The notes: generated by a model from the sequence alone, not told the origin. DNA of 64,000 nt from Escherichia coli (GCF_003790525.1 NZ_CP033635.1); one strand, 5' to 3'; shown: positions 21,597 to 61,649, counted from the stretch's first letter. Translations and numbers: made by a program.

Positions 21597-23436
<1,840 letters not shown>

Positions 23437-23464
23437 ATCCTTTTCAGCCGCGTAATGGCTTGTT

Positions 23465-23480
23465 TGCAAAGCGGATGCCA
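23465..23480 (-). promoter_or_regulatory. Sigma54 (-24/-12) promoter element for the rut operon
   Basis: Minus-strand TGGCAT-ccgct-TTGCA with consensus GG/GC spacing, about 30 bp upstream of the rutA ATG. Confidence 0.55.
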
Positions 23481-30457: not shown

Positions 30458-31288
30458 ATGTTTGTTCCGTTTCTCATTATGTTGCGCGAAGGACTTGAAG
30501 CCGCGCTGATTGTCAGTTTGATTGCCAGCTATCTTAAGCGTACCCAGCGAGGCCGATGGATTGGTGTGATGTGGATTGGCGTGTTGCTTGCCGCTGCGTT
30601 GTGCCTGGGCTTGGGTATCTTCATTAACGAAACCACCGGCGAATTTCCGCAAAAAGAACAGGAACTGTTTGAAGGTATCGTGGCGGTGATCGCCGTGGTG
30701 ATCCTTACCTGGATGGTTTTCTGGATGCGCAAAGTGTCGCGCAACGTCAAAGTACAACTGGAGCAGGCAGTCGACAGCGCATTGCAGCGTGGAAATCATC
30801 ATGGCTGGGCGCTGGTGATGATGGTCTTTTTTGCCGTTGCAAGGGAGGGGCTGGAGTCGGTCTTTTTCCTGCTGGCGGCGTTTCAACAAGATGTCGGGAT
30901 CTGGCCGCCGCTGGGTGCAATGCTCGGTCTTGCTACAGCCGTGGTGCTCGGCTTCCTGCTCTACTGGGGCGGTATTCGCCTCAATCTTGGTGCATTTTTT
31001 AAATGGACCAGCCTGTTTATTCTCTTCGTCGCCGCAGGGCTGGCGGCTGGTGCCATTCGCGCATTTCATGAAGCCGGATTGTGGAACCACTTTCAGGAAA
31101 TCGCCTTCGATATGAGTGCGGTGCTCTCAACTCACTCGCTGTTTGGCACGCTGATGGAAGGGATTTTTGGCTATCAGGAAGCGCCGAGTGTCAGCGAAGT
31201 CGCCGTCTGGTTTATTTATCTCATCCCGGCGCTGGTGGCATTTGTTCTGCCACCACGCGCAGGGGCGACTGCGTCCCGCTCCGTGTAG
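30458..31288 (+). CDS. efeU: Ferrous iron permease EfeU (FTR1 family), apparently intact
   Basis: ATG 30458 (MFVPFLIMLREGLEAALIVSLIASYLKRT...), uninterrupted 276 codons with two REGLE motifs. Confidence 0.85.
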   Translation: MFVPFLIMLREGLEAALIVSLIASYLKRTQRGRWIGVMWIGVLLAAALCLGLGIFINETTGEFPQKEQELFEGIVAVIAVVILTWMVFWMRKVSRNVKVQLEQAVDSALQRGNHHGWALVMMVFFAVAREGLESVFFLLAAFQQDVGIWPPLGAMLGLATAVVLGFLLYWGGIRLNLGAFFKWTSLFILFVAAGLAAGAIRAFHEAGLWNHFQEIAFDMSAVLSTHSLFGTLMEGIFGYQEAPSVSEVAVWFIYLIPALVAFVLPPRAGATASRSV

Positions 31289-32478: not shown

Positions 32479-33750
32479 ATGCAGTATGAAGATGAAAACG
32501 GCGTGAATGAACCGTCACGCCGACGTTTACTGAAAGGGATTGGTGCGTTGGCGCTGGCGGGAAGTTGTCCGGTCGCTCATGCACAAAAAACGCAAAGTGC
32601 ACCGGGCACGCTTTCACCGGATGCGCGCAGTGAAGCGCAGCCGTTTTATGGCGAACATCAGGCGGGTATTCTGACGCCGCAGCAGGCGGCAATGATGCTG
32701 GTGGCGTTTGATGTGCTTGCCAGCGATAAAACCGATCTTGAACGGTTGTTTCGCTTGTTGACTCAGCGTTTTGCTTTTCTGACTCAGGGCGGAGCGGCAC
32801 CAGAAACGCCAAATCCGCGCCTGCCACCACTCGATTCCGGCATTCTTGGCGGCTACATTGCGTCCGATAATCTCACCATAACGTTATCGGTGGGCCATTC
32901 ATTGTTTGATGAGCGGTTTGGCCTTACACCGCAGATGCCGAAAAAGTTGCAGAAAATGACGCGTTTCCCCAACGACTCGCTGGATGCGGCGTTATGTCAT
33001 GGTGATGTGTTGCTACAAATTTGCGCCAACACCCAGGACACGGTGATCCATGCGCTGCGCGATATCATCAAACACACGCCGGATTTGCTCAGCGTGCGCT
33101 GGAAGCGGGAAGGGTTTATTTCCGATCACGCAGCGCGTAGTAAAGGCAAAGAGACGCCGATAAATTTGCTGGGTTTTAAAGACGGCACAGCCAATCCCGA
33201 TAGCCAGAATGCGAAGTTGATGCAAAAAGTGGTGTGGGTGACGGCAGATCAGCAGGAGCCTGCGTGGACAATCGGTGGCAGCTATCAGGCGGTGCGGTTG
33301 ATTCAGTTTCGGGTGGAGTTTTGGGACAGAACGCCACTGAAAGAACAGCAGACGATTTTTGGTCGCGACAAACAAACTGGTGCGCCGCTGGGCATGCAGC
33401 ACGAGCATGATGTTCCCGATTACGCCAGCGATCCGGAAGGGAAGGTGATCGCGCTGGACAGCCATATTCGGCTGGCGAATCCCCGCACGCCAGAGAGTGA
33501 GTCAAGTCTGATGCTGCGTCGTGGCTACAGTTATTCACTGGGCGTCACCAACTCCGGGCAACTCGATATGGGGCTACTGTTTGTCTGCTACCAACACGAT
33601 CTGGAAAAGGGCTTCCTGACAGTACAAAAAAGGTTGAATGGCGAGGCGCTGGAGGAATATGTCAAACCTATCGGTGGCGGCTATTTCTTTGCGCTGCCGG
33701 GTGTGAAGGACGCGAACGATTATCTCGGAAGCGCATTATTGCGGGTTTAA
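32479..33750 (+). CDS. efeB: Dye-decolorising (DyP-type) peroxidase EfeB, Tat-secreted
   Basis: 423-aa ORF with twin-arginine motif [16 protein letters not shown]. Confidence 0.9.
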
Positions 33751-33759
33751 TGTTTTTAG

Positions 33760-33905
33760 GCGTATAAGGCATTCGTGCGCAGATGCCTGATGCGACGCTT
33801 GCGCGTCTTATCATGCCTACAATCGGTGCGGGTTCGGTAGGCTGAATAAGGCGGTCACGCCGCATCCGGCGTTCGTGCGTTGATGCCTGATGCGAATCCT
33901 GCTGA
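33760..33905. repeat. REP/BIME cluster between efeB and phoH
   Basis: gcctgatgcgacgcttgcgcgtcttatcatgcctac and ggcggtcacgccgcatccggcg...gatgcctgatgcg units. Confidence 0.55.
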
Positions 33906-33927
33906 AAGCACACAGCTTTTTTCATCA

Positions 33928-33945
33928 CTGTCATCACTCTGTCAT
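33928..33945 (+). promoter_or_regulatory. Pho box (PhoB binding site) upstream of phoH
   Basis: Direct repeats CTGTCAT at 33928-33934 and 33939-33945 with 11-bp periodicity. Confidence 0.55.
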
Positions 33946-34094
33946 CTTTCCAGTAGAAACTAATGTCACTGAAATGGTGTTTTATAGTTAAATATAAGTG
34001 AATATATTGTTGCAATGAATGCGAGATCTGTTGTACTTATTAAGTAGCAGCGGAAGTTCCCGGCAGTGATAGTCAGTCACTATGGAGATCGCGG

Positions 34095-52349: not shown

Positions 52350-52450
52350 TGCCTGATGCGCTACGCTTATCAGGCCTACATCGCTCCTGCAATGTATTGA
52401 TTTTGCAAGATTTTGTGGGTCGGATAAGGCGTTCACGCCACATCTGGCAA
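52350..52450. repeat. REP/BIME elements downstream of opgH
   Basis: gcctgatgcgctacgcttatcaggcctaca and gtcggataaggcgttcacgccacatctggc units. Confidence 0.55.
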
Positions 52451-52465
52451 AAACAACGAGCCAAT

Positions 52466-52497
52466 AAAAATACCGGCGTTATGCCGGTATTTTTTTA
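52466..52497 (+). terminator. Rho-independent terminator between opgH and yceK
   Basis: TACCGGC-gttat-GCCGGTA followed by T7. Confidence 0.55.
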
Positions 52498-56793: not shown

Positions 56794-56834
56794 ATATCAT
56801 TGCCGGATGCGTGCCATCCGGCAACATTTCACTC

Positions 56835-61544: not shown

Positions 61545-61649
61545 TAATCTCTATGCTCCGGCTGAAGGGATGTTTTTGCCGGACACAAAGGATAAGCGGA
61601 AACGTTTTCCTTTGCACGAAAAATAAAGGGCGCGAATGCGCCCTCGTGA

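Follow-up and report, generated by a model that had tools for sequence, protein, structure and literature searches.

The 64-kb stretch of Escherichia coli DNA analyzed here, referred to below as the window, contains three operon ends at which the intergenic DNA carries clusters of palindromic repeats. The first lies between torCAD and the convergent cbpAM operon, the second between efeUOB and phoH, and the third between opgGH and yceK (sites 1, 2 and 3; Table 1). Over its full 64 kb the window is the reverse complement of positions 2082231–2146230 of E. coli SMS-3-5 (NC_010498.1), differing only by 3 SNPs and a deletion of 1 bp, and gene coordinates are those of the PGAP annotation of the SMS-3-5 record carried over to the window. 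A 901-bp query around the efeB–phoH cluster is matched at 100% in SMS-3-5 and in about 20 further strains. The 1-bp deletion relative to SMS-3-5 falls in an A4 run at 22775 and splits rutA into two ORFs (22289–22867 and 22747–23469, minus strand), reflecting either a real frameshift in the strain or a sequencing error. The torS gene (3037–5780) is annotated as frameshifted in SMS-3-5, and in the window its ORF stops at 3048, falling short of the annotation by 11 nt. The efeU gene (30458–31288), a pseudogene in K-12, is intact in the window, so the efeUOB operon that ends at site 2 is presumably functional here.

Table 1. Gene borders and repeat features at the three operon ends, in window coordinates (CM, covariance model score).
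Site	Feature	Coordinates	Strand	Evidence
1	torCAD, torD stop codon	11998..12000	+	transferred annotation
1	Z2-type REP, foot GTGC	12009..12046	-	CM 39.8 bits; alignment; Z2 half of naRNA4 match; hairpin -18.8 kcal/mol
1	Y-type REP, foot GTGA	12060..12093	+	4/34 mismatches to Y consensus; CM 49.3 bits
1	diverged REP, Y-like head, in Z2 position of 101-bp BIME-2 period	12109..12143	-	CM 39.9 bits
1	cbpAM (convergent to torCAD), cbpM stop codon	12152..12154	-	transferred annotation
2	efeUOB, efeB stop codon	33748..33750	+	transferred annotation
2	half REP, GTAG-side arm of Y unit TAGGCGTATAAGGC	33757..33770	-	sequence; other-strain alleles; Rfam naRNA4 alignment with broken pairs
2	short head-to-head linker ATTCGTGCGCAGAT	33771..33784		recurs at 33871-33884 in direct repeat
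2	complete Z2-type REP GCCTGATGCGACGCTTGCGCGTCTTATCATGCCTAC, canonical CTAC foot	33785..33820	+	2/36 mismatches to Z2 consensus; CM 45.7 bits
2	16-nt tail-to-tail linker, Z2 to Y	33821..33836		sequence; repeat search
2	complete Y-type REP, canonical GTAG foot	33837..33870	-	3 mismatches to published Y consensus; CM 48.7 bits
2	half REP, Z-unit head arm only GCCTGATGCG	33885..33894	+	sequence; repeat search; fold
2	phoH	start 34095 (K-12 start) or 34371 (PGAP, short form)	+	
3	opgGH, opgH stop codon	52338..52340	+	transferred annotation
3	Z1-type short REP, CTAC foot	52350..52379	+	0/29 mismatches (52351-52379); hairpin -13.2 kcal/mol, z=-4.6
3	35-nt L linker of BIME-1	52380..52414		Rfam ES036/CssrF (RF02751) 49.9 bits vs gathering score 37.6
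3	Y-type REP, foot GTGG	52415..52448	-	4 mismatches to Y consensus; CM 48.8 bits
3	intrinsic terminator after BIME-1, perfect 12-bp stem AAAAATACCGGC/GCCGGTATTTTT, then T run	52466..52497	+	inverted-repeat search; fold
3	yceK	from 52513	+	transferred annotation

These three clusters contain all the REP units of the window, seven complete and two half ones, and every unit is extragenic, located between annotated CDSs at 8–34 nt past the stop codons of torD, cbpM, efeB and opgH. The initial annotation had reported REP/BIME clusters after torD, efeB and opgH; their position just past the three stop codons agrees with the transferred annotation, and their presence is confirmed by consensus matches with 0–4 mismatches and by a covariance model. 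The three locations it gave were correct, whereas the end of site 1 was not: this cluster runs to 12143 rather than to 12090, a third unit having been missed. Minor adjustments change the approximate limits after efeB from 33760–33905 to 33757–33894 and those after opgH from 52350–52450 to 52350–52448.

At all three sites the sequence can be read as the REP head GCC(G/T)GATGCG and the tail CTTATC(C/A)GGCCTAC. An ungapped (Hamming) scan of the window with three consensus sequences, Y, Z2 and Z1, the last in what we take to be its standard form, gave significant matches at each site and retrieved five units with 0–4 mismatches over 29–36 nt; in 200 control sequences generated from the window with a first-order Markov model, the closest chance matches had 10, 8 and 12 mismatches. 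The Y consensus was that quoted in PMC12306157, and both Y and Z2 also appear in Table 1 of Nunvar 2010. Two minus-strand units at site 1 (12009–12046 and 12109–12143) differ in loop length and were found by alignment and by the covariance model. This model was trained on the seven window units and three K-12 units, and its recovery of precisely the seven training units in the window (E from 3e-12 to 1e-8) holds by construction; it also picks up two K-12 REPs outside the training set (1985–2018 and 543–578 in K-12 sequence L005). No further match was obtained in the 64-kb window at E<0.1. The next best hit (56802–56825, E=0.16) falls in a perfect hairpin, TTGCCGGATG-CGTGC-CATCCGGCAA, at 56800–56825 between the convergent genes trhO and yceI, which consists of two REP heads placed head-to-head without a REP tail. 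A similar fused hairpin at torD–cbpM in strain RM9387 (GCCGGATGCGTCATCACATCCGGC) looks like the product of a 59-bp deletion between two GATGCG microhomologies, and the trhO–yceI hairpin is therefore probably a REP remnant.

Folded singly, the seven units reach -9 to -19 kcal/mol, and each shows the internal loop expected of a REP. In comparisons with shuffled sequences four of them have z of -2.9 or lower, the rest being weaker (z about -1.2 to -1.8), while the whole clusters fold with -75.2, -63.7 and -58.8 kcal/mol (z of -3.5, -4.6 and -4.7). Hairpin folding and location at operon ends are also what one would expect if each palindrome were simply an intrinsic terminator of its own, or a G+C-rich inverted repeat that arose by chance, and belonged to no repeat family. 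However, such sequences would not match a consensus of 29–36 nt with 0–4 mismatches when the best among 200 controls have at least 8–12, the hairpins are not followed by a T tract, and the same sequences occur at many other chromosomal places. Megablast searches with the loci found 3–20 (site 2) and 3–40 (site 3) places per genome, and these are lower bounds because an exact word of 28 nt is needed. We exclude this explanation for all practical purposes and consider it virtually certain that the clusters at torD, efeB and opgH are genuine E. coli REP/BIME repeats, with Y, Z1 and Z2 units that alternate in orientation. Curated REP features were looked for in the RefSeq record of K-12, which lists none.

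The foot of the repeat is canonical (GTAG/CTAC) in three of the seven units, namely the Z2 unit at 33785, the Y unit at 33837 and the Z1 unit at 52351, and degenerate in the other four: GTGG at 12109 and 52415, GTGC at 12009 and GTGA at 12060. A GT(A/G)G foot is permitted in REPs by Nunvar 2010, and the GTAG foot is required by the TnpA_REP transposase for binding and cleavage (Ton-Hoang 2012); the four copies without it are probably immobile relics.

The three clusters differ in type. BIME-1 elements are defined as single-copy combinations of a Z1 and a Y unit around a long L linker with an IHF site, and BIME-2 elements as tandem Z2 and Y units with short linkers and a copy number that varies among strains (Ton-Hoang 2012). 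Site 1 is a three-unit BIME-2 array (Z2 on the minus, Y on the plus and the diverged Y-like unit on the minus strand; 12009–12143) common to the ends of the convergent torCAD and cbpAM operons. Its Z2 unit starts 8 nt past the torD stop codon and its third unit lies 8 nt from that of cbpM. The periodicity of the array is reflected in a direct repeat (12006–12028 and 12107–12129) with a spacing of 101. In strains EC958 and SCU-123 a canonical Z2 occupies the position of the diverged third unit, which retains a GTAG foot in K-12 and has GTGG in the window.

Site 2 (33757–33894) consists of a half-Y (minus), Z2 (plus), Y (minus) and half-Z (plus). The half-Y lacks the apical part and the second arm, and is complete in B2/ST131 strains. 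A 42-nt direct repeat (33761–33802 versus 33861–33902, 79% identity) at a spacing of 100 bp identifies the site as about 1.4 units of a BIME-2-type repeat. It is truncated at both ends and is better termed an atypical BIME-2. The Z2 unit by itself folds with -14.8 kcal/mol (z=-5.1), and the RNA of the whole site is predicted to form one long composite hairpin in which Z2 pairs with Y and the half-Y with the half-Z, accounting for the -75.2 kcal/mol (z=-3.5) cited above. Starting 34 nt downstream of the BIME, at 33928–33945, is the sequence CTGTCAT-CACT-CTGTCAT (CTGTCATCACTCTGTCAT), which we take to be the Pho box of the phoH promoter. Two other candidate features around this site were rejected. 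A terminator-like hairpin at 33901–33925 (GCTG...CAGC followed by T6) is weak, with -4.9 kcal/mol reached by 38 of 200 shuffled sequences and no response in a pattern scan, and an ORF of 115 aa across the BIME (33668–34015, minus strand) is unannotated in K-12 and SMS-3-5, overlaps the repeats and was not accepted as a gene.

Site 3 (52350–52448) is a BIME-1, or RIP, with a Z1 unit on the plus strand that begins 10 nt past the opgH stop codon, the L linker and a Y unit on the minus strand. The linker, which resembles that of a BIME-1 at ymdF–rutG in K-12, contains a match to the IHF consensus by the sequence criterion (AATCAATACATTG at 52390–52402, minus strand, fitting WATCAANNNNTTR). Over the window as a whole the IHF consensus is not significantly enriched, with 7 occurrences found and 2.8 expected. 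The intrinsic terminator that follows the BIME-1 (Table 1) is separate from the REP family.

Apart from the linker of site 3, Rfam matches were obtained with naRNA4 (RF02564), a model whose consensus is Y-S-Z2. On the minus strand of site 1 it scores 64.3 bits, above its gathering score of 59.5, and at site 2 it stays below with 39.8 bits because the Y half of the Y-S-Z2 junction is truncated there. These matches raise the possibility that the clusters are genes for trans-acting sRNAs, naRNA4/CssrE-like at sites 1 and 2 and ES036/CssrF at site 3, with a function such as HU-aided nucleoid compaction. Qian 2015 reports transcription of approximately 80% of REPs and gives the REP325 locus as the origin of naRNA4. 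However, the Rfam models were built from the repeat itself, ES036 representing the BIME-1 L linker, so that any BIME will score and the matches to our clusters are to be expected. Neither site 1 nor site 3 showed a promoter-like sequence, and the role of naRNA4 in HU-dependent compaction of the nucleoid is disputed in a recent preprint (bioRxiv 10.64898/2026.03.23.713779). Moreover, the naRNA4 gene is located between yjdM and yjdN, and the match at torD–cbpM reflects the BIME-2 unit that the two loci share. We regard the sRNA explanation as very improbable, and the clusters are better masked as repeats than mined for novel RNAs.

The initial annotation credited REP units with most of the DNA between genes that is otherwise unannotated, and this turned out to be false. 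Based on the SMS-3-5 annotation there are 7,748 bp of intergenic DNA in 56 gaps, of which the clusters make up approximately 372 bp or 4.8% (374 bp with slightly wider cluster spans). They dominate only their own gaps: at torD–cbpM 135 of 151 bp belong to the cluster, and at opgH–yceK 99 of 172 bp; at site 2 the cluster accounts for about 138 of the 344 bp between efeB and phoH, taking phoH at its K-12 start. The greater part of the intergenic DNA is located elsewhere, including the gaps csgD–csgB (754 bp), phoH–DUF2726 (562 bp), opgC–opgG (393 bp) and wrbA–ymdF (372 bp), and this remainder contains promoters, 5' UTRs (for example of cspG and csgD) and terminators. Four other Rfam models score above their gathering scores in the window: the cspA-type thermoregulator upstream of and overlapping cspG (908–1330), Ysr251 antisense inside the 3' end of phoH (34961–35154), the ES056 sRNA in the csgD–csgB intergenic region (42187–42278) and the PyrC leader (61545–61594).

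Each of the three clusters has an orthologous, collinear counterpart in K-12, to which it aligns base for base with equal unit number and orientation, which supports the description of these repeats in the initial annotation as typical of the E. coli core genome. The syntenic stretch of K-12 contains four extra REPs, which form a BIME-1 at ymdF–rutG, a lone Y at putP–efeU and a Y after appA. The lower number in the window agrees with a published survey in which SMS-3-5, a member of clade F, counts as poor in REPs (fewer than 310, compared to an average of about 546 in clade A). At ymdF–rutG (window 17856–17937, L005 28255–28510) K-12 has about 174 bp more, comprising a complete BIME-1 (Z1-L-Y) flanked by a diverged duplicate of a terminator hairpin of about 25 bp (CACCGCCGGTAACCCCGGCGGTT), and the window represents the empty site with a single hairpin. 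This flanking duplication is not as expected from IS200/IS605-like mobilization.

Other differences from K-12 concern larger segments. At about 557–565 a 9-kb K-12 segment with etk-etp-gfcEDCBA (group 4 capsule) and IS1D is absent, and appA abuts cspH in the window, the annotated CDSs overlapping by 13 bp. At 35202–36415 the window has only one gene, encoding a DUF2726 protein (35722–36408) and next to a tRNA-Ser gene, where K-12 carries an 11.4-kb segment (pgaABCD-dgcT-IS3D-ymdE-ycdU). The adjacent 104 bp (36415–36518, the tRNA 3' end and its flank) are present three more times in K-12 and resemble att-type repeats such as accompany islands inserted at serX.

Comparisons among strains show that the three sites vary to different extents. 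The locus of site 3 is present in 5,389 of 5,426 complete E. coli genomes, and its length is 547–551 bp in all 39 chromosomal rows of an evenly spaced sample. Site 1, by contrast with this single-copy locus, changes in steps of about 101 bp and carries 1, 3, 5 or 7 REPs. Rough shares, assigned by length in 40 evenly spaced rows from the 5,426 genomes, are about 35% for the allele with one REP and a head-to-head fused hairpin (RM9387), 43% for three REPs (the window, K-12), 12% for five (EC958) and 8% for seven (SCU-123). At site 2 there are at least four alleles with 0, 1, 2 or 3 complete REPs, and their shares are likewise rough, resting on 60 evenly spaced rows mostly assigned by length. Allele A, with the arrangement found in the window (half-Y, Z2, Y, half-Z), also occurs in K-12, O157:H7, SCEC020026 and AR_0006 (about 70%). 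Allele B has Y, Z2 and Y without the half-Z (O25:H4 strain 18044 and B1.H1.1; about 22%), allele C has the half-Y and half-Z only, is exactly 100 bp shorter and contains no complete REP (82.0311 and O145:H28 RM13514; about 3%), and in allele D a linker joins a small palindrome of unrelated sequence to a single Y (S1-IND-02-A and AST240; about 5%). This population pattern fits the published classes, in which BIME-1 elements are single and stable and BIME-2 elements vary in copy number (Ton-Hoang 2012).

Strain differences of this kind could arise if the clusters were currently active mobile elements (REPINs or BIMEs moved by TnpA_REP/RAYT) and the alleles products of fresh excision or insertion. 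In 82.0311 and O145:H28 the 100-bp unit is missing exactly, with endpoints inside a 13-nt block, GATGCCTGATGCG, that includes the TnpA_REP type-I cleavage site TGCC^TGAT (Ton-Hoang 2012). The 101-bp steps of the torD array and the occupied and empty sites at ymdF–rutG in K-12 and in the window point the same way, and TnpA_REP recombines REPs and linkers in vitro (Ton-Hoang 2012). However, the same endpoints would be just as likely if the 42-nt direct repeats had undergone replication slippage or homologous recombination, the GTAG foot is missing from four of the seven units, and the literature examined contains no demonstrated in vivo transposition of E. coli REPs. Current activity appears improbable to us, though less so than the sRNA reading. 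It is conceivable but still less probable than mobility in general that the REP-less allele C, which is seen in two unrelated backgrounds, is the footprint of in vivo excision by TnpA_REP. If so, the four alleles of site 2 would tune how far transcription of efeUOB, which responds to iron and acid, reads through into the promoter of phoH, which responds to phosphate, and they would provide a natural series for tests of REP function.

We favor ordinary REP/BIME repeats, non-coding and non-autonomous according to the literature, which would have spread and been rearranged through TnpA_REP/RAYT (a REP-associated Y1/HUH transposase) and through recombination or slippage between repeats. By analogy with other REPs we propose, with somewhat better than even confidence, that at these particular loci they play a dual role as terminators and mRNA stabilizers. 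In the transcript of the upstream operon each cluster would make up the 3' UTR and fold into stable hairpins, which may block 3'-to-5' exonucleases and so stabilize the upstream mRNA, and may at the same time attenuate read-through, partly through Rho. A pattern scan for canonical intrinsic terminators found none at sites 1 and 2, leaving the REPs as the only strong 3' structures there. The preprint on REP325 (bioRxiv 10.64898/2026.03.23.713779) describes this locus as a partly Rho-dependent terminator and mRNA stabilizer, and reports upstream-biased expression for REP-bearing tandem gene pairs and raised expression for convergent pairs; site 1 would fit the convergent case and sites 2 and 3 the tandem case. 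The same source also describes REP effects as context-dependent, with terminal REPs not generally tied to longer mRNA half-lives. Because site 2 is located directly upstream of the phosphate-regulated phoH Pho box, it is a plausible insulator of this promoter from iron- and acid-regulated transcription of efeUOB. Natural strains without a complete REP at efeB–phoH (82.0311 and O145:H28 RM13514) indicate that the element is dispensable there.

A further possible effect concerns translation. Ribosomes are reported to stall when a REP follows the stop codon at a distance of up to 15 nt (Liang 2015, as summarized in PMC12306157), and the REP hairpins at torD, cbpM and opgH, 8–10 nt past the stop codon, fall inside this distance. 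At sites 1 and 3 no more than 15 nt separate the stop codon from the hairpin foot, which is the case at site 2 only if the half-Y pairs. At the DNA level the clusters may act as gyrase (BIME-2) and IHF (BIME-1) sites, again by analogy: binding of gyrase, IHF and Pol I is listed among the properties of the REP/BIME family in a published summary, and binding and cleavage by DNA gyrase are known for BIME-2 (Espeli and Boccard 1997, as reported in a citing paper). The genes efeB, phoH, torD, cbpM, opgH and yceK are not mentioned in the RepRanger paper or in the 2026 REP325 preprint.

Taken as a whole, BIME identity of the three sites together with the origin and role proposed above is the best explanation of the data, to which we assign a probability of roughly 0.9. 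Its significance is limited mainly to correct annotation, all three loci being orthologous to K-12 positions. The variation at efeB–phoH (0–3 REPs) and torD–cbpM (1–7 REPs) nevertheless offers a natural allelic series for testing the terminator and stabilizer model.

The clusters can be compared with several known systems. Site 2 resembles the REPINs of Pseudomonas in having two inverted REPs within one long predicted hairpin (-75 kcal/mol), whereas the REP sequence family is a different one and a RAYT gene is absent from the window; REPINs and RAYTs were reportedly characterized by Bertels and Rainey in 2011. Sites 1 and 2 share Y and Z2 units, short linkers, a period of about 100 bp and variable copy number with REP325, the source of naRNA4 at yjdM–yjdN, but REP325 has 12 units compared with three at site 1 (the third diverged) and two plus two half units at site 2. 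Site 3 corresponds to the BIME-1 (RIP or RIB) elements said to have been described by Boccard and Prentki and by Oppenheim in 1993. Like these it is single-copy and stable across strains, with tail-to-tail Z1 and Y units around a conserved 35-nt L linker that contains WATCAANNNNTTR, although its IHF site is a predicted one and the foot of its Y unit is GTGG rather than GTAG.

The closest likeness is to the REP (PU) sequences of E. coli itself, arranged as Y, Z1 and Z2 units in BIMEs. REP/BIME elements have been described since 1984, and the family is said to go back to work by Stern in that year and by Gilson, Bachellier and Hofnung. The repeats in the window agree with it in consensus, in the imperfect hairpin with an internal mismatch, in alternating orientation, in extragenic position at the 3' ends of operons, in multiple copies and, in three of seven units, in the GTAG/CTAC foot. 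Nothing essential differs, the peculiarities of the window being four degenerate feet and the two half units of site 2, and the REP/BIME repeats at these loci are of an ordinary, already described kind.
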